Shown: positions 1-6,436 of the stretch, piece after piece
Layout of the letters: every line of letters starts with the position of its first letter
Numbering within the stretch: position 1 is the first letter of the stretch
Assembly: GCA_020725385.1 (NCBI GenBank)
Contig: DYFC01000053.1
Location: 1-48,358, forward strand
Direction of reading: 5' to 3'
DNA length: 48,358 nucleotides
Origin: Nitrospira japonica
Lineage (GTDB): Bacteria > Nitrospirota > Thermodesulfovibrionia > Thermodesulfovibrionales > SM23-35
Made by a program: the position numbers and the translations under genes
The notes under the pieces: model-generated
What the model saw: only the letters and a program-made list of their open reading frames with translations
The model's database searches: none
What the model was told of the DNA's origin: nothing

Positions 1-11
1 GATCATTAATA

Positions 12-37
12 TAGGGGCAATTCATGAATTGCCCCTA
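12..37. repeat. Perfect 26-bp palindrome, GTAG-family REP-like element
   Basis: TAGGGGCAATTCATGAATTGCCCCTA is its own reverse complement. It is followed by C, giving CTAC (GTAG on the minus strand), the end motif of RAYT-associated REPs. Confidence 0.75.
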
Positions 38-41
38 CTCC

Positions 42-83
42 CTGACAGATGAGGAGATTGAGATTGTAGACGGGAAAGGGTAA
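42..83 (+). pseudogene. Remnant of a type IIG restriction-modification enzyme C-terminal tail (copy 1)
   Basis: Translates LTDEEIEIVDGKG*, matching the LYGLTxEEIxIVEG end of Eco57I/TaqI_C-type enzymes. 52-84 is 31/33 identical to 923-955. Confidence 0.6.
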
Positions 84-113
84 ATTGTAAAATATGAATA
101 TGGAGGATAAACA

Positions 114-407
114 ATGAAAACACTCCGCGAAATTAAACAAATCTTAAAGAAACATAAACCTGAAGTTCAGGCGAAATATAATGTCAGTGAATTAGGGATA
201 TTCGGTTCTTTCGTACGCGGAAAACAGAGAAAAAGGAGCGATATTGATATACTCGTTGAATTTACTGAACTCCCTGACGTTTTCTTGCTAATTGATCTGG
301 AAGATCATCTTCGAAGAATTTTAAAAAAGAAGATTGATTTGGTTAGAAAAGGAGCAATAAGGCCCGAGCTCAAAAAGGTCATCGCAAAAGAGGTGGTTTA
401 TATATGA
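114..407 (+). CDS. mntA: Minimal nucleotidyltransferase (MNT) antitoxin, type VII TA
   Basis: GS-x10-DxD motif (GSFVRGKQRKRSDID), 97 aa, GGAGG RBS, ATGA overlap with the HEPN gene. Confidence 0.92.
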   Translation: MKTLREIKQILKKHKPEVQAKYNVSELGIFGSFVRGKQRKRSDIDILVEFTELPDVFLLIDLEDHLRRILKKKIDLVRKGAIRPELKKVIAKEVVYI

Positions 408-760
408 CTAGAGAGTACAAATTATTTATTAAAGACATTGTTGAAGCAATAAAAGATATAGATATTTTTATAGGAAATATGGATTACGAAGAATTCCTTA
501 AAGACAAGAAAACCCAGAAAGCTGTTGTGTGGCAAATACATATAATTGGTGAAGCAACAAAAAATATTCCTGAATCTATAAGGAACAAATATAAGGAAGT
601 CCCTTGGAAATATATGGCACGGATACGAGATAAAATCGCTCATTTCTATTTTGGGATTGATTATGCAATTGTCTGGAGTGTTATAAAAAGAAAACTGCCG
701 GAGATAAGGCCTGTAATTGAAAAAATCCTAAAAGATTTAACCAAAAATAATAAAACATGA
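404..760 (+). CDS. hepT: HEPN/DUF86 RNase toxin
   Basis: R-x4-H-x-Y motif (RDKIAHFY), IIGEATKNIP and VPWKYM segments, coupled to the MNT gene. Confidence 0.92.
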   Translation: MTREYKLFIKDIVEAIKDIDIFIGNMDYEEFLKDKKTQKAVVWQIHIIGEATKNIPESIRNKYKEVPWKYMARIRDKIAHFYFGIDYAIVWSVIKRKLPEIRPVIEKILKDLTKNNKT

Positions 761-954
761 ACCAGCAATCCTTAATCACCTATCGTCGACCAAATCCTCG
801 CCATCAATAAACAAACCTCTCAATTCCTATTTTCTAAGAGAGACTAAGAAGATACTGACACCTCCGCCCTTGACTACCAGTTTGATGAAATGGTCTATAA
901 CACCTTTATGGATTGATATAAAAGGAGATTGAGATTGTGGAAGGGAAAGGGTAA
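757..954 (+). pseudogene. Decayed C-terminal tail of a type IIG (Eco57I/TaqI_C-like) restriction-modification enzyme (copy 2)
   Basis: Across 2 frameshifts and 2 internal stops it reads MNQQSLIT/IVDQILAINK...DTDTSALDYQFDEMVY/HLYGLI*KEIEIVEGKG*. This matches the family tail QQxxIxLVDQILA...ADTSALExQIDxLVYxLYGLTxEEIxIVEG (recognised from memory). Confidence 0.75.
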
Positions 955-980
955 AATATTTCATACAGGAGGTGTGCAGA

Positions 981-1181
981 ATGAAAATAAAAGCTACTTT
1001 TGTAAAAGACGGAAAATGGTGGGTGGCATGGACTGATGATGTTCCGGGTGCGCTTACACAGGGAAAAACTATTGAAGAGGCAAAAGAGAATCTTATAGAT
1101 GCTATACATGAAATACAAAAACCTATTGATATTTCTTCGTTACCAAAAAGAGAGGTTATCTTACAAGAGATTGAAGTGTGA
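981..1181 (+). CDS. hicB: HicB-family antitoxin (short form)
   Basis: PGALTQGKTIEEAKENLIDAI motif. ATG at 981 follows AGGAGG at 967-972, so it is preferred to the GTG at 972. Confidence 0.9.
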   Translation: MKIKATFVKDGKWWVAWTDDVPGALTQGKTIEEAKENLIDAIHEIQKPIDISSLPKREVILQEIEV

Positions 1182-1369
1182 AACGAAAAGAGTTAATCAG
1201 GCATATAGAACGACATGGATGCGTCTTGGCCAGAGAAGGCGCGAAACACTCTCGTTATATCAACCTTGCCGACCCAAGTAAATCAACCACAATTCCAAGA
1301 CATGCGGAAATAGCTGATCTTCTGGCAATCAAGATTTGCAGACAGCTTAGAATTCCCGATCCAAAATAA
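1178..1369 (+). CDS. hicA: HicA-family mRNA interferase toxin
   Basis: MKRKELIRHIERHGCVLAREGAKH...TTIPRHAEI...ICRQL; GTGA overlap with hicB. Confidence 0.92.
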   Translation: MKRKELIRHIERHGCVLAREGAKHSRYINLADPSKSTTIPRHAEIADLLAIKICRQLRIPDPK

Positions 1370-1384
1370 AAAAGGAGGTCTTTT

Positions 1385-2503
1385 ATGTCGAAAGTTTATT
1401 TTGCATCTGCAAGAGCAATAAAGTGGAAACATGATGATAGTATGCCGGGCAAGCTGGAAAGGCTTTTGAATGAATTTGACTTAAAAAAATATTTTGAACC
1501 CGAAGAATGGGTTGCTGTCAAAACACACTGGGGTTCTGAAGGAGCACATAGAATAGTTAGACCTGTCTTTCTAAGAAAAGTTGTTGAAGCGCTGAAAGGA
1601 ATTCAAGCAAAACCATTTGTTACAGATACTGTAAGGATAAAGGGATTGGATTACCTTGAAGTTGCGAATTATAACGGTATAAATCATCTATCAGTTGGCG
1701 CTCCTGTTGTTCTCGGTGATGGTCTTTATGGAAATGACAATATAATGGTTAAAGCAGGTGAGATTCTCGGTGAGATTGCAGTTGCAAGTGTTATTCATGA
1801 TGTACCTGCTATGGTTGTCTGTTCTCATATTAAAGGACATATACAAGCTGGTTACGCAGGAGCTATAAAAAATATAGCAATGGGCGGTGTAAGTGCAAGG
1901 CATAGACAATGTGGATGGAAATGCGGAAGAGGAGCTATGCATACATTGGGAGAAGGAAAGCTTTCATGGGATAAGGATAAATGCGAGCTTTGTTATCAGT
2001 GTATGGAAATATGTCCTTTGGATGCAATTAAATTTAAAAATGACGGAATGATATGGGATGAGAATGAATGCTGGAGATGCGGAAGATGTGAGAGAGTTTG
2101 CCAGTCAAATGCACTACATCTTCCGAAAGATGACGAACGTTTTATGCGTTCTCTCGCCGAAGCTGGAAAAGCTGTTTTAAGTACTTTTAAACCAAACAAA
2201 GTCATATACATTAATTTCCTGACAGAAATTCAGCCTGAATGCGATTGTATGCCAATAGCTGATGTTCCTGTAATTCAGGATATAGGAATTTGCATATCAG
2301 ATGATATTGTTGCAATAGAACAGGCAAGCATTGATTTACTTCTTAAAGAAGAACCTTTACCTAAATCCGCTGCTGAAGATAAAGGAATTAAAAAGGGAGA
2401 TGACGTTCTTTTTAATTTATCCTTGAAACCTTATCATATTCAGGTTGAAGAGGCTGAAAGGCTCGGACTCGGAAGCAGGGAATATGAATTGATCATGATT
2501 TAA
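1385..2503 (+). CDS. DUF362 domain protein with 2x[4Fe-4S] ferredoxin domain
   Basis: VAVKTHWG, HIKGH..AGYAGAIKNIAMGG, CELCYQCMEICP, CWRCGRCERVC and PECDC motifs; AGGAGG RBS. Confidence 0.88.
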   Translation: MSKVYFASARAIKWKHDDSMPGKLERLLNEFDLKKYFEPEEWVAVKTHWGSEGAHRIVRPVFLRKVVEALKGIQAKPFVTDTVRIKGLDYLEVANYNGINHLSVGAPVVLGDGLYGNDNIMVKAGEILGEIAVASVIHDVPAMVVCSHIKGHIQAGYAGAIKNIAMGGVSARHRQCGWKCGRGAMHTLGEGKLSWDKDKCELCYQCMEICPLDAIKFKNDGMIWDENECWRCGRCERVCQSNALHLPKDDERFMRSLAEAGKAVLSTFKPNKVIYINFLTEIQPECDCMPIADVPVIQDIGICISDDIVAIEQASIDLLLKEEPLPKSAAEDKGIKKGDDVLFNLSLKPYHIQVEEAERLGLGSREYELIMI

Positions 2504-2526
2504 AATGGATTTTATATTTATCCCCC

Positions 2527-2590
2527 AAAAAATTAAATACTGCTGTCCGTGGGAGTTGGACAGCAGTATTAGGGGAGATAACGAGGCATT
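2527..2590 (-). ncRNA. Candidate small RNA (~60 nt)
   Basis: Has its own sigma70-like promoter (2597-2626) and terminator (2536-2570), with C-rich UCUCCCC and ACUCCC motifs and no real ORF. Confidence 0.4.
2536..2570 (-). terminator. Intrinsic terminator hairpin between convergent DUF362 and argJ genes
   Basis: 13-bp perfect stem AATACTGCTGTCC/GGACAGCAGTATT with a 9-nt loop; TAATTTTTT follows on the minus strand. Confidence 0.75.
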
Positions 2591-2596
2591 TAAATA

Positions 2597-2626
2597 TTTA
2601 TAACATCACTGAAAAAACTTTGTCAA
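2597..2626 (-). promoter_or_regulatory. Sigma70-like promoter downstream of argJ with no protein gene to serve
   Basis: TTGACA (2626-2621), 18 nt, TATAAA (2602-2597) preceded by TGn. Confidence 0.55.
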
Positions 2627-2647
2627 GATAAAACTAAAATTTTATCT

Positions 2648-3835
2648 TTAAGTTCTATATTCAGCGTTAATTTTTACATAATCTTCCGTTAAATCACATG
2701 TATAAATATTAGCTGAAGCTTTTCCTAATTTTAATTTTATAGTAATTTTTATGTCTTTCTTCTTCAATTCTTCTCCTGCTTCTTTATCATTTCCTGAAGC
2801 AATGCCATCTTTAACGACCTGAATTTTATTAAAAAATATATCAACTTTATTTTCTCTCATTTTAATGCCAGAATAGCCAAGAGCAGCCATTATACGGCCC
2901 CAGTTGGCATCATTGCCAAAGATAGCTGTTTTTACAAGATTTGAGTTTGCAACAATAAGGGCTGCTTTTTTGGCATCTGCTACAGAAGTTGCTTCTTTAA
3001 CAGAAACTTCGACAAATTTTGTAGCACCTTCACCATCACGAGCTATCATTCTTGCCAGTTCATCTGTAATTTGAATAAGTGTTTTTGAAAACTTTATATA
3101 CTCATCCGAACCGTACAAAACTGGCTTATTTCCAGCTATTCTATTAGCCATTACAATGACTGTATCATTTGTTGACATATCACCGTCAATAGTAAGTCTG
3201 TTAAAAGATAATTCTACAGATTCTTTAAGAGCTCTGCTGAGGGCATCTTTATTAATTGATATGTCAGAAAGGACAAAACATAACATTGTTGCCATATTAG
3301 GACATATCATTCCAGCACCTTTACATATGCCGGAAACTGTACATATACTTTTACCTATTTTAATTTTTTTACTTACGATTTTAGGAAAAGTATCAGTGGT
3401 CATTATAGCTCTTGCAACATCATCAATAGATGCTTTTCCAATGTCCTGAATTAATGATGGTATGCTATTCCTTATCCTTTCCATAGGCATTGGAGTACCA
3501 ATAACACCTGTTGAAGCAACATATACAAGAGATGATTTTATATTTAAACCCTTAGCAATTAATTCTGCCATTTCTTTTGCATCATCAAGTCCCTGTTTAC
3601 CGGTACATGCATTTGCATTGCCGCTGTTAACTATAATTGCCCGGCCTTCCCCTGACATAATTCTTTTCATATCAAGTTTAACAGGAGCTGCTTTAACTTT
3701 ATTTGTAGTAAACATTCCTGCTACAACTGCTTCTTTTTGGGAATATATTAAAGCAAGATCCTTTCTGCCAGGCTTTTTTATTGCAGCCTCAGCAGTCGAA
3801 AACAAAAAACCTTTAGGTGTATTTTTTTCATTCAT
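2648..3835 (-). CDS. argJ: Ornithine acetyltransferase / N-acetylglutamate synthase
   Basis: NSGNANACTG, KGAGMICPNMATML (autocleavage Thr), DGEGATK and INAEYRT motifs. Confidence 0.97.
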   Translation of the reverse strand: MNEKNTPKGFLFSTAEAAIKKPGRKDLALIYSQKEAVVAGMFTTNKVKAAPVKLDMKRIMSGEGRAIIVNSGNANACTGKQGLDDAKEMAELIAKGLNIKSSLVYVASTGVIGTPMPMERIRNSIPSLIQDIGKASIDDVARAIMTTDTFPKIVSKKIKIGKSICTVSGICKGAGMICPNMATMLCFVLSDISINKDALSRALKESVELSFNRLTIDGDMSTNDTVIVMANRIAGNKPVLYGSDEYIKFSKTLIQITDELARMIARDGEGATKFVEVSVKEATSVADAKKAALIVANSNLVKTAIFGNDANWGRIMAALGYSGIKMRENKVDIFFNKIQVVKDGIASGNDKEAGEELKKKDIKITIKLKLGKASANIYTCDLTEDYVKINAEYRT

Positions 3836-3871
3836 TTTTAACTTAACCTTATAAAGTAAATTAAATTTGTT

Positions 3872-4912
3872 TTAAGGGATTAACGGTAATGTTTTAAGTC
3901 CTGTTTCTTCTTCAAATCCCATCATTAAGTTCATATTATGAACTGCCTGACCAGACGCACCCTTTACGAGGTTGTCTATAGCAGTAACAATTATCAGGGT
4001 ATTGGTTCTTTCATTAAGTTTCAATCCAATTTCACAGAAATTTGTCCCTCTTACATTTTTTATGTTTGGATATTGACCATATTTTAAAACCCTTATGAAT
4101 GGTTCTTTTGCGTAAGTCTTTTTATATATACCTGTAATTTCATCCGGAGTTATTTTCTTTGAAATTTTACAATAGATGGTTGTCAGGATACCTCTATCAA
4201 GTGGAAGAAGATGAGGAGTAAAATTAACTGTTATTTTCCTGCCAGATAAATAAGACAATTCCTGCTCTATTTCAGGTGTATGTCTGTGAGTACCTACAGC
4301 GTAAGCTTTAAATCCTTCGTTAACTTCACAGAAAGAAAATGCAACATCTGATTTCCTTCCTGCTCCGCTTGTGCCTGATTTTGAATCAATTACTATGGAT
4401 GATGTATCTATAATTTTAGCCTTAATAGAAGGAAGCAGCCCGAGAATAGCTCCTGTTGGATAACAACCCGGATTTGCAATTAAAGAGGCTTTCTTGATTT
4501 TCGCACGATAAATTTCAGGCATTCCATAGATAGCCTTTTTTAATGTATCGGTGAATTTATGGGGAGTTTTATACCACTCTTCATAAGCTTTACTGTCCTT
4601 AATGCGATAATCAGCGGAAAAGTCAATAACTTTCTTGCCATTTATATAGAAAAAATCAACTGCTTCCTGGGATTCAGCATGAGGTAGTGCAAGGAAGAAT
4701 AAATCGGCCTTATTAAGTATTTGTTCTTTTTTTAAAGGCTCATAAATTAGTTTCGAATATTTATAAAGTCCGGGGAAAAGGTCTGTTACAGATTTGCCTG
4801 CGGATTTTTCGGATGAAACACCGGTAATAACAACTTCAGGATGATTAGAAAGTATGCGGAGAAGCTCGCATCCAGCATATCCGCTTCCTCCGCAAATAAA
4901 AACCTTAAGCAT
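3872..4912 (-). CDS. argC: N-acetyl-gamma-glutamyl-phosphate reductase
   Basis: GGSGYAG, IANPGCYPT, SGTSGAGR, HRHTPEI and DNLVKGASGQA motifs. Confidence 0.97.
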   Translation of the reverse strand: MLKVFICGGSGYAGCELLRILSNHPEVVITGVSSEKSAGKSVTDLFPGLYKYSKLIYEPLKKEQILNKADLFFLALPHAESQEAVDFFYINGKKVIDFSADYRIKDSKAYEEWYKTPHKFTDTLKKAIYGMPEIYRAKIKKASLIANPGCYPTGAILGLLPSIKAKIIDTSSIVIDSKSGTSGAGRKSDVAFSFCEVNEGFKAYAVGTHRHTPEIEQELSYLSGRKITVNFTPHLLPLDRGILTTIYCKISKKITPDEITGIYKKTYAKEPFIRVLKYGQYPNIKNVRGTNFCEIGLKLNERTNTLIIVTAIDNLVKGASGQAVHNMNLMMGFEEETGLKTLPLIP

Positions 4913-4966
4913 CTCAACCTTTCATGAAATGAAAAAATCTGAAAGTAAATATATATCTATTAAAAA

Positions 4967-5359
4967 TTATCTCTTCGAGAACTGGAATCTCTTTCGGGCG
5001 CCTTTCTGGCCGTATTTTTTACGTTCCTTTTCTCTGGGATCTCTTGTTAAAAAACCTTCTTTTTTGAGTTTTATACGGAGGTCACTGTTCATATCAACAA
5101 TAGCACGGGCTATGCCATGACGCACAGCACCCGCCTGCCCTGTTAATCCACCACCAACAACTTTTGCCTTAATGTCATATTTCCCAGTAATCCCGGCAAG
5201 TTCTATAGGTTGGCGTATAACCATCCTGAGAGTCTCTCTCGGAAAATAAGTATCTACGGGTTTATCATTTACAATTATCTGACCGGTCCCGGGCATCATT
5301 GTAACTCTTGCTACTGATGTCTTTCTTCTACCGGTTGCGTTATACTGAATATCTGCCAT
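4967..5359 (-). CDS. rpsI: 30S ribosomal protein S9
   Basis: [12 protein letters not shown]; C-terminal [19 protein letters not shown]. Confidence 0.98.
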
Positions 5360-5379
5360 ACATTGCTCCTTATCTATCT

Positions 5380-5808
5380 TTAAATAGTCATTATTTCGGG
5401 TTTCTGTGCTTCATGAGGATGCTCAGAGCCTTTATAAACCTTCAGCTTTTTCAACATAGCTCTGCCCAGTCTTCCTTTTGGAAGCATTCCCCAAACCGCA
5501 TCTTTTACAATTTCTTCAGGACAACGTTTTAAACGTTCCCTTGCTGTTTCAGCCTTAAGCCCACCCGGGTAATTTGAATGTCTGTAATATACTTTATTAT
5601 CAAGTTTTTTACCGGTGAGTTTAACTTTTTCAGCATTTACAACAACAACAAAATCCCCTGTATCGGCATTTGGAGTAAAAACAGGTTTTTTCTTCCCGCG
5701 TAAACAGTCTGCTATTTTTACAGCAAGCCTTCCGAGCACAGCATCTTTAGCATCTACAAGATACCATTTACGTTCTATATCGCCTTTTTTAGCAAAAATA
5801 GTCCTCAT
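5380..5808 (-). CDS. rplM: 50S ribosomal protein L13
   Basis: [35 protein letters not shown] and HPHEAQKP motifs. Confidence 0.98.
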
Positions 5809-5843
5809 TTCTTCACCTTCCTGTTACTTATATTAAGACTATT

Positions 5844-5873
5844 AAGATAATAAAAATATCATATAATTGTCAA
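5844..5873 (-). promoter_or_regulatory. Sigma70 promoter for rplM-rpsI(-argC-argJ)
   Basis: TTGACA (5873-5868), 18 nt, TATCTT (5849-5844). Confidence 0.55.
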
Positions 5874-5875
5874 CT

Positions 5876-6436
5876 TTATACTCTTGCCTGCCTGCAAACA
5901 ACCCTATTAAGGTCAACACCTATTAAATCTGCAGCAGCTTTCCACCGGTCTTTTACAGGAGTCTCAAATATAATTTTGTTATTTGAAGGAGCAACCAGCC
6001 AGCTATCGATCATTAATTCATACTCAAGCTGACCGGGAGACCATCCGGCAAAGCCAAGGGTAAACAAATATTTCGAGGGACCTTTTCCGGTTGCTATATC
6101 AATGAGAATTTCTTTGGAGGTTGTGAGAGAAAGATTTCTGTTTATTTTTATTGAAGGGTAATAAATATTCGATGATGAATAAAGAATATAACCCTGTTCT
6201 GGTTTCACGGGACCGCCATAATATACAGGCAAATCTATAATACATTCTTTAATATCAAGCCCGCTACTCAATGGAATAAAACTGCTTAGCAAAATACGAT
6301 TAATAACCAGTCCGAAAGCACCATCATTAGTATGATCACAAATCAATACAACTGTCTTCTCAAAATTCGGATCTTTGAGTCCCGGAACAGCAATAAGAAA
6401 CATTCCTGATAAATTTGTTATATCAACTTTTTTCAT
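5876..6436 (-). CDS. YqgE/AlgH family (UPF0301) protein
   Basis: DPNFEKTVVLICDH..GAFGLVINR, GGPV and GFAGWSPGQLEYE..SWLV motifs. Confidence 0.93.
   Translation of the reverse strand: MKKVDITNLSGMFLIAVPGLKDPNFEKTVVLICDHTNDGAFGLVINRILLSSFIPLSSGLDIKECIIDLPVYYGGPVKPEQGYILYSSSNIYYPSIKINRNLSLTTSKEILIDIATGKGPSKYLFTLGFAGWSPGQLEYELMIDSWLVAPSNNKIIFETPVKDRWKAAADLIGVDLNRVVCRQARV

Follow-up and report, generated by a model that had tools for sequence, protein, structure and literature searches.

How do two unrelated toxin-antitoxin (TA) pairs come to lie in tandem, each directly behind a remnant of the same kind of restriction-modification (RM) gene? The question is raised by the left end of the stretch of DNA analysed here (the window, C52:1-48358, 48,358 bases), which belongs to a genome, G000, whose assembly is 96.6% complete; other G numbers denote genomes of relatives, and L numbers denote loci. 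By tail we mean the C-terminal conserved region of a type IIG RM gene, and by core the last ~30 bp of that tail. A core that ends a long Eco57I/TaqI_C gene is a gene-end core, one that does not is an orphan, and one truncated by the end of a contig is a cut core. A first-pass annotation of the window had proposed that TA modules are arrayed behind repeated IIG tails that serve as recombination anchors. On our best reading, 1-1369 is indeed the far end of a co-oriented array of TA cassettes, each operon standing behind a decayed IIG tail, and the parent IIG gene no longer adjoins the array in G000.

Two remnant tails and their toxin-antitoxin operons

The repeat at this locus is real and far beyond chance. 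Positions 43-84 and 914-955 form a 42-nt direct repeat with 86% identity, and we reproduced the closer match that had first been noticed, in which 31 of 33 bases are identical between 52-84 and 923-955. These are the sole two matches at 3 mismatches or fewer within the window, and 100 dinucleotide shuffles produced no match at all. Neither copy ends a long RM open reading frame (ORF): the in-frame run upstream of tail 1 amounts to a few codons only, and tail 2 carries two frameshifts and two stops. Three-frame translation of 757-954 gave MNQQSLIT in frame 1, IVDQILAINKQ..RD, a stop and EDTDTSALDYQFDEMVY in frame 2, and LYGLI, a stop, KEIEIVEGKG and a final stop in frame 1, in agreement with the composite that had been proposed (QQSLIT / IVDQILAI .. 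DTSALDYQFDEMVY / LYGL .. EIEIVEGKG and stop).

The identification of these pieces as IIG C-termini was confirmed by TBLASTN analysis. Using the last 80 residues of 11 full-length IIG enzymes as queries against window positions 1-1500, the best hits were at 821-907 and 904-948, with E-values over 821-948 of 3e-7 (L039) and 7e-7 (L051), and the C-termini also matched 36-77 with E-values of 4e-5 to 1e-4; the search space is very small, yet the alignments leave little doubt. The reference full-length genes carry Eco57I, N6_Mtase and TaqI_C domains, and their conserved segment after TaqI_C reads ..PFI.LVDQILA.K..DTSALE.QID..VY.LYGLT.EEIEIVEG. The matches therefore establish both window pieces as orphan remnants of the region that follows the TaqI_C recognition domain.

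Each remnant stands immediately ahead of an operon. The mntA ATG at 114 follows the stop codon of tail 1 (81-83) after 30 bp, and tail 2, which ends KEIEIVEGKG with its stop at 952-954, lies 26 bp before the hicB ATG at 981, so the coordinates and the Pfam families both agree with the earlier description of two tails ahead of two unrelated TA pairs. The mntA and hepT candidates overlap by 4 nt, and gene layout and family membership together identify 114-760 as a putative MntA-HepT (type VII) pair; the matches to NCBIfam MntA_antitoxin (3e-13, 49.6 bits) and HepT_toxin (2.6e-9, 37 bits) are both under the 60-bit cut-off. The hepT stop codon in turn overlaps the first ATG of tail 2. On the same grounds 981-1369 is predicted to be a HicAB pair with the antitoxin gene first, the HicB candidate scoring 24.9 bits against DUF1902 (cut-off 22) and falling under the cut-off of UPF0150. 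The window operons are co-oriented on the plus strand and tightly packed, with 26-30 bp from tail stop to cargo start, as are those of G011:C124 and L033.

Table 1. Features at the left end of the window.
Feature	Position	Strand	Description
REP-like element	12..37		perfect 26-nt palindrome (13+13 nt, 100% complementary), inside remnant tail
Tail fragment 1	42..83	+	last 13 codons of type IIG C-terminus, LTDEEIEIVDGKG and stop; core 54-83
Promoter-like site, tail 1	58..86	+	TTGAGA, 17 nt, TAAATT; 9/12, consensus match only
mntA-type nucleotidyltransferase antitoxin (candidate)	114..407	+	97 aa; Pfam NTP_transf_2, 2.5e-14
hepT-type HEPN RNase toxin (candidate)	404..760	+	118 aa; Pfam HepT-like, 3.8e-28
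Tail 2	757..954	+	pseudogene copy of whole type IIG C-terminal conserved region; core 925-954
Promoter-like site, tail 2 core and stop codon	929..957	+	TTGAGA, 17 nt, TAAAAT; 10/12
hicB-like antitoxin (candidate)	981..1181	+	66 aa; Pfam DUF1902 2.2e-5, UPF0150 2e-3
hicA toxin (candidate)	1178..1369	+	63 aa; Pfam HicA_toxin 5.5e-8, 33.2 bits (cut-off 27)
DUF362 gene with 4Fe-4S domains	1385..2503	+	DUF362 1.8e-38; begins 15 nt past hicA, which is the last gene of the array

Tail-cargo arrays in G000 and its relatives

Further tail copies in G000, which an array of this kind would lead one to expect, are present on contig C21. The start of this contig, read on the reverse strand, carries in order a C-terminal fragment of a transposase associated with repetitive extragenic palindromic (REP) elements (RAYT; NCBIfam REP_Tyr_transpos, 8e-13), which abuts a tail; an uninterrupted 53-codon tail frame whose head lacks a start codon (QILAIKQ..LYGLTEEEIEIVEEKK and stop); the same REP as in the window, followed by a tail fragment (C21:699-616) that is 99% identical to window 1-84; a cargo consisting of a 65-aa ORF and a RelE/ParE-family toxin (Pfam ParE_toxin 5.4e-10); and, lastly, a further tail, only the head of which is present before the contig ends. 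This second tail head is 99% identical to the first C21 tail over 100 nt (C21:1-100 and C21:763-862), and window 757-820 is 83% identical to C21:134-71, with a frameshift common to both. All three cargoes found in G000 (3/3) are TA pairs. We also noted a short ORF (MKNFITNTGAANLKKRLIELIQKSTEY and stop; C21:1260-1180, reverse strand) just upstream of the RAYT fragment; it presumably resembles the N-terminus of helicase-type defence proteins with a PLD domain, in which case another gene stub is present there.

The window begins at base 1 of C52, and the assembly holds nothing farther left. Two Logan contigs from other samples extend 163 nt past that base, and since this is the length of C21:862-700, which precedes the shared 84 nt, we infer the same tail left of base 1. 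C21 may thus join C52 in an array of at least three cassettes. The sole intact type IIG gene of G000 is at C36:3697-7260 (1187 aa, ending ..LIDKILAITKD..QIDQLVYQLYDLTEEEIKII..). Its tail DNA does not resemble the orphan tails, and the sequence behind the gene is an uncharacterised open frame, with no recognisable tail or TA pair.

Intact IIG genes at the left of tail-cargo arrays, looked for as the parents of the remnants, were found in relatives. In G011:C124 a 506-aa IIG gene end with its tail is followed by cores at 3476, 4864 and 7416 and by four cargo blocks; the order is IIG gene end, an AAA_15/DUF3696 pair, core, a DUF3800 pair, core, DUF433-DUF5615 with a zeta/helix-turn-helix (HTH) block, core, and hicBA, with a HicB 91% identical to that of the window. 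An intact IIG gene likewise stands at the left of the array in L029, L038, L044 and L059. Window 1-1370, tail 2 included, has a colinear counterpart in L034 (73% column identity), and past hicA L034 has a third tail and a ParE pair where the window has the DUF362/4Fe-4S gene.

Cargo order was expected to vary between genomes, and it does. The predecessor of hicBA is mntA-hepT in the window and L034 and the zeta/HTH block in G011, and that of DUF433-DUF5615 is MNT-HepT in L033 and the DUF3800 pair in G011. Within single genomes, near-identical tails stand ahead of different cargo (C52/C21 and C21/C21 in G000, and two L033 junctions identical over at least 65 nt). A cassette of a 93-aa ORF and DUF2283 occurs in L043, L044, L045 and L076 with the same core and unrelated upstream sequences, the homology beginning exactly at GAGATTGAG; a tail follows the DUF2283 stop in L043, L045 and L076, and behind that tail L045 and L076 carry a MazF cassette. 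The L059 orphan is a 134-nt, 98.5% identical copy of the resident gene's own tail. It starts at the boundary past the recognition domain and reaches into the core, and the two copies enclose a small cargo. This is the structure expected after a single crossover with a circle, or after two crossovers of a linear tail-cargo-tail piece within one tail.

The association of core and cargo was also followed from the cargo side. A search with the window HicB in 390 genomes of the class gave 30 loci, 11 of them at 83% identity or more. The core was directly upstream of hicBA in 9 of these 11, mostly at near-invariant spacing to the start codon, and one more had a core broken by a 16-nt insert; the homologues at 83-93% identity thus carry the tail core upstream. 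None of the 19 more distant loci had a core at that position, although one has a core farther upstream, and one of the 19 has a canonical TTGACA-17-TAAAAT promoter at the core's place. The left ends of the tails fall into two fixed classes, one at the boundary between the recognition domain and the conserved region and the other at the 5' edge of the core.

Truncated stubs were seen beside some cores. They consist of the N-terminal 10-15 codons (..IGFWSEIKLEI..) of a 273-283-aa protein whose partner is a radical-SAM protein, and occur in L012 upstream of 7416, in L059 at 1540-1575 (oriented), in L064 near 5180 and in L072, the full genes being present in L028 and L057. It looks as if later cassettes have replaced most of the radical-SAM-partner cargo at a fixed point.

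To place these arrays in a wider context, we scanned for the exact 23-base core in one genome per species, which returned 56 loci. Core matches inside unrelated genes (L023, L024, L052 and L063) were dropped before counting, duplicate loci were removed (L027, L040, L049, L058, L062, L078 and later L189), and 61 cores outside G000 were left; a scan of metagenome contigs added 68 further distinct cores. When tails in the family were counted at the protein level with a 47-aa query, even the copies of G000 itself were missed; this approach was too insensitive and was excluded from all counts. The hosts in the exact scan are mostly Nitrospirota (Thermodesulfovibrionia) and Nitrospinota, with a few Deltaproteobacteria, Brocadia, Anaerolineae and others, and among 40 relatives searched at the DNA level some carry several cores on one contig. 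The 61 cores comprise 47 orphans, 13 gene ends and 1 cut core, and the 68 from metagenomes comprise 58 orphans, 6 gene ends and 4 cut cores. Many metagenome contigs end ~32 nt before the core, as a repeat would lead one to expect.

The ORFs around the cores were annotated with Pfam and tabulated by script, a TA system being counted if a recognised component was among the first two same-strand ORFs after the core. In the other genomes 21 of the 47 orphans qualified but just 1 of the 13 gene ends, which bears out the proposed enrichment of orphan tails beside TA genes; at the level of ORFs, TA components made up 27 of 88 first-two ORFs and 27 of 269 other neighbourhood ORFs. The components found after orphans include MNT, HepT, HicA/B, DUF433, DUF5615, ParE, DUF2283, PIN and RelB. 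In the metagenomes a TA component followed 19 of the 48 orphan or cut cores examined, and 3 further cores with DUF2281 behind them were left uncounted. Other cargo comprises DUF3800, Fic, an SDH-type protease, YhcG nucleases and the radical-SAM pair, while behind intact IIG genes we found nSTAND3, a SMODS gene (like those of the cyclic-oligonucleotide-based anti-phage signalling system, CBASS), zeta toxin, a caspase-like protein and OLD. A search of six array loci for known RNA families returned none of relevance. Tail-punctuated cassette arrays of TA and defence genes are widespread, mainly in Nitrospirota and neighbouring phyla.

Proposed routes of cassette gain and shuffling

Our leading account, which we hold to be evenly balanced between right and wrong, is that host homologous recombination between duplicated tails brings cassettes in and shuffles them, and that the core may double as a promoter. 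A copy of the tail would travel with each cargo, and host recombination between tails would insert a circle (cargo plus tail) at a resident tail; alternatively a linear tail-cargo-tail piece would enter by two crossovers within one resident tail. The outcome would be cargo behind the restriction gene and a duplicated tail, the gene end remaining intact and the downstream copy being free to decay. Repeated events would build arrays, recombination between any two tails would delete or reshuffle cassettes, and TA addiction would favour keeping the captured cargo. The last ~30 bp of the tail with its stop codon would probably also serve as the cargo promoter (Table 1), a role that would explain why the core survives where the rest of the tail is lost. 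This is essentially the mechanism of the first-pass annotation, and it is plausible and fits most of the evidence. The layout, its spread, the TA enrichment, the modular reshuffling and the near-identical duplicated tails are observed; exchange at the tail by host enzymes alone, and the promoter role of the core, are what we infer.

The search for enzymes in G000 is consistent with host functions sufficing. The genome has two Xer-size tyrosine recombinases, on C33 and C15, neither of them on C52 or C21; there was no Phage_integrase or Resolvase match on C52 or C21 and no resolvase match in the whole of G000. A whole-genome search for an integron integrase (TIGR02249) gave 74.8 bits at best (cut-off 265), with the matches on C33 and C15. 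No inverted repeat was found within 43-84 or 914-955. An attC-like structure of the tails was ruled out by folding four complete tails as single-stranded DNA on both strands, which gave nothing unusual against shuffles (z from -0.84 to +2.78).

Several observations weigh against recombination between tails as we describe it. The two window copies have just 33-42 nt in common, which is short for efficient homologous recombination, and neither a circle nor a cassette-skipping joint was seen in the assembled Logan contigs of four public runs, although contigs cannot show rare forms; the one joint found, from 973 back to 775, is the paralogous C21 cassette. Neither viral contigs (0 matches) nor plasmids matched the core, so no known transfer vehicle can be named. 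The genomes are related and come partly from the same sampling campaigns, so that the counts are not independent and their independence is overstated. The promoter component is affected as well: the 10/12 site is the top score in 1-3000, tied with a minus-strand site at 91-63, but the 8 promoter-like sites in that interval compare with a shuffle mean of 11.2 and are not above chance, and a -10-like hexamer was counted for 17 of 52 orphans and for 3 of 13 gene ends, making the promoter idea weak as a general rule. A promoter role for the core may therefore fit only some cassettes.

A further difficulty is posed by junctions at which all of the tail but the core is absent. Many orphan cores are directly preceded not by tail but by a conserved non-coding block of ~45 nt, here termed block L (AAAAAAGGGACAGGTACATTATC..GGGCAGARGCAG; for example L012:3430-3475, L033 (oriented) 685-731 and 1495-1541, and L044:2868-2906), and many junctions thus keep just the 30-bp core joined to this block. 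Block L and core form a conserved composite of ~75 nt in many genomes. Because block L in L044 lies downstream of an intact IIG gene with its own complete tail, the cassette there brings its own block L and core. A derivation of block L from a diverged tail middle was rejected, as an nhmmer profile built from 18 real tails gave no score to any of the 20 block L sequences, its listed hits being shuffled controls only; nor did block L match Rfam. The idea of an independent dispersed element was likewise set aside: of 30 loci sampled from a one-mismatch search of 390 genomes, 27 look like chance, and the 30 include 2 with a core by the script test and a third with a degenerate core.

Cores and cassettes also adjoin type I specificity genes. 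In three genomes the core directly abuts the end of an hsdS gene (..GMILG), at ~6001 in L046 (oriented), 1011 in L040 and 4560 in L075 (oriented); what stands behind these cores is a small operon or a Fic gene. Another family has three genomes in which the tail flanking hicBA is of HsdS type, ending ..KLIEIFE.KIKAKIAEVWGE and stop: L129 (G068:C23), L125 (G084:C45) and L130 (G112:C27). Upstream of hicBA is a short HsdS-type 3' piece (..KLIEIFEGKIKAKIAEVWGETVK and stop), and downstream is the full conserved region, MILALSVQ.QIV..IEEEQKLVEANKKLIEIFE.KIKAKIAEVWGE and stop, followed by an antitoxin-PIN cassette. The downstream tail is an intact ATG-initiated ORF, 46 aa long in two of the genomes and ~64 aa long in the other; inspection by eye shows synonymous as well as replacement changes among the three. 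As far as comparison of sequences goes, these flanks show the tail-cassette layout generalised beyond IIG genes. They also count against tail homology as the only agent, since hicBA of ~80% identity between unrelated-looking tails means that homology alone cannot move a cassette from one tail type to another.

These junctions bear directly on a different explanation, namely that the core, alone or with block L, is the site of a recombinase encoded in trans, for example one of the two Xer-like tyrosine recombinases, and that cassettes move in the manner of integrons or dif modules. At the 5' edge of the core the breakpoint is sharp and recurrent, with at least three kinds of unrelated sequence upstream, the conserved composite travels with the L044 cassette, and cores abut hsdS ends; a sharp recurrent breakpoint fits a site-specific process at least as well as homologous recombination, and with block L it keeps the trans-acting explanation alive. 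We nevertheless consider it distinctly improbable, given that the core lacks dyad symmetry, that the tails have no unusual single-strand fold, that recombinase genes lie near few annotated loci (L028, at the far end, and L061 and L073, on the opposite strand), that G000 has no integron integrase or resolvase, and that tail duplications of 100-134 nt exceed what any site-specific core needs. A further view, which strikes us as rather unlikely, is that the tails are passive relics: IIG and TA genes would come and go at a hotspot in a defence island, orphan tails would be deletion scars without cassette mobility, and the last 30 bp would persist only as the promoter or 5' region of the downstream operon. 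That the window tails are pseudogenes in which small palindromic repeats have accumulated is in its favour, as are the match of the core to the sigma-70 consensus at 26-30 bp from the cargo start and the solo hicBA of G039, which has a canonical promoter (TTGACA, 17 nt, TAAAAT) at the same place and at equal distance to the ribosome-binding site. A ribosome-binding site and start codon within 75 nt of the core start were present in 20 of 52 orphans and in none of 13 gene ends, and the different tail DNA of the C36 gene can be read in the same way. Independent deletions should end randomly, however, whereas the left ends fall in two fixed classes; the same core-plus-cargo unit is found in different flanks, and near-identical tails flank different cargo within one genome.

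Two other proposals concern what lies inside the tails. If the REPs there delimited segments mobilised by RAYT, in the manner of IS200/IS605-type elements, one could point to the REP at window 12-37 and at the equal tail position in C21, to REP-like palindromes inside the tails of L034, L016, L044, L047 and L065, to the RAYT fragment abutting the C21 tail and to a RAYT gene near the L046 array. We find this scarcely credible: most cassettes, the hicBA unit and window tail 2 among them, are not bordered by a REP on either side, and REPs vary between genomes while the core is constant. REPs are also scattered over unrelated sites of the genome, which gives them the look of secondary insertions into non-coding remnants. 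The second proposal, to our mind a very doubtful one, is that orphan tails are present or former small translated genes, those still intact yielding a free helix, co-transcribed with the TA pair, that would modulate or interfere with restriction enzymes assembled through such helices. Most tail heads that follow a toxin stop have an ATG at the same codon (window 757, C21, L034 twice, L117, L118, L033 and L038:3910), where full-length genes have K, A or E, and the HsdS-type tail is an intact ORF in all three genomes described above. Yet both window copies and the C21 head are broken, and most of the 18 orphans with at least 30 in-frame codons have no start codon at that position.

Homologous recombination at tails can also be set beside known systems. 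Integrons hold co-oriented, packed small cassettes, often TA pairs, which are separated by a repeated boundary site and lie behind one anchor gene. The array here is likewise co-oriented and closely packed, with a repeated boundary and one anchor gene, but there is no IntI, the repeat is a linear piece of coding sequence without an attC-like fold, and the anchor is the 3' end of an RM gene rather than attI. Integrative elements that target the 3' ends of genes carry a replacement gene end and form tandem arrays at tRNA genes; as here, the target stays intact, a partial duplicate lies downstream and repeated insertion makes arrays. Those elements encode an integrase and are kilobases long, whereas the units described here are 0.55-1.5 kb and lack one. 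The core also presumably differs from the dif consensus. The pdif modules of Acinetobacter are reported to be small, many of them TA pairs, to be bounded by short repeated sites and to be shuffled without a recombinase of their own (PMC6449649, PMC13141974); their 28-bp XerC/XerD sites have inverted arms and lie on plasmids, while our core is asymmetric and chromosomal and had no plasmid match.

The nearest precedent is the pneumococcal tvr locus (SpnIV type I RM), for which the relevant sections of the report state that direct repeats in hsdS conserved regions guide the excision and reintegration of a circle carrying TA homologues, that the tyrosine recombinase of the locus, TvrR, does most of the work, and that inefficient excision persists at long repeats without it (PMC6265443). 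In both cases repeats from a specificity gene flank a segment containing TA genes. Going by the same sections, tvr shuffles target-recognition domains for phase variation of one enzyme, with TvrR in the locus; here the cargo consists of TA and defence operons, the arrays contain no recombinase, the repeats derive from a IIG tail whose downstream copies have become pseudogenes. The circular product is also reported as still detected in a recA-minus background (PMC6265443), so that tvr, as those sections present it, does not show RecA-dependent exchange. TA or abortive-infection genes beside or inside restriction loci are themselves familiar, for example prrC in a type IC locus and TA pairs in the E. 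coli immigration control region (PMC12707154); the passages of that review on such genes describe neither duplicated tails between cargo nor arrays of such units. Our literature search, for which subscription journals were mostly outside the scope, found no description of restriction-gene tails punctuating TA cassettes.

Defence islands and clusters of TA genes are known for their high variability, and how small cassettes without mobility genes enter and leave genomes is mostly unexplained outside integrons and Xer modules. A shared tail used as a recombination handle, and perhaps as a promoter, would be a simple mechanism that needs only host recombination and would tie TA turnover to RM genes. 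More tentatively, the arrays could represent a recombinase-free counterpart of integrons, in which the tail of a restriction module, IIG or HsdS-type, provides portable homology, cassette boundary and promoter in one; this is possible, and we would not call it probable. A genome that has a restriction gene of this sort could then acquire TA and other small defence operons from relatives through ordinary homologous recombination, with TA addiction fixing the captures. A bolder extension of this reading would have intact orphan tails translated into the free, interfering helices mentioned above. Orphan tails would also serve as sequence tags in the search for small defence cargo not yet described, and they account for the breaks in these assemblies.

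Small repeats and flanking genes

The palindrome at the left end of the window reads TAGGGGCA..TGCCCCTA. Identical copies occur in G000 at C21:663-688 and C2:72969-72994, with a variant at C2:68134-68157 and a further REP-like copy at C31:120954-120979. The sole Y1_Tnp (RAYT) match of the genome is at C2:72786-72947, with REP copies beside it. The same 26-mer recurs in relatives, with at least 10 matches in G033, and the orphan tails of several genomes contain REP-type palindromes, of several kinds, at about the same place. A second dispersed hairpin repeat (ACACACCCCT..CCCCTCTTGATAGAGGGGAA) is found in intergenic DNA and in the linker of orphan tails. Its sites in G000 are C21:~845-805 and ~83-43, C69:701-738, C29:59990-60029 and C31:89400-89435, and variants are present inside the tails of L034, L038, L043 and L064.

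To its right the array adjoins ordinary housekeeping genes (1385-6436), the first being the DUF362/4Fe-4S gene. From reading of the translations, putative minus-strand ORFs there resemble argJ (2648-3835) and argC (3872-4912), two ORFs at 4967-5808 resemble the genes of ribosomal proteins S9 and L13, and another minus-strand ORF occupies 5876-6436.

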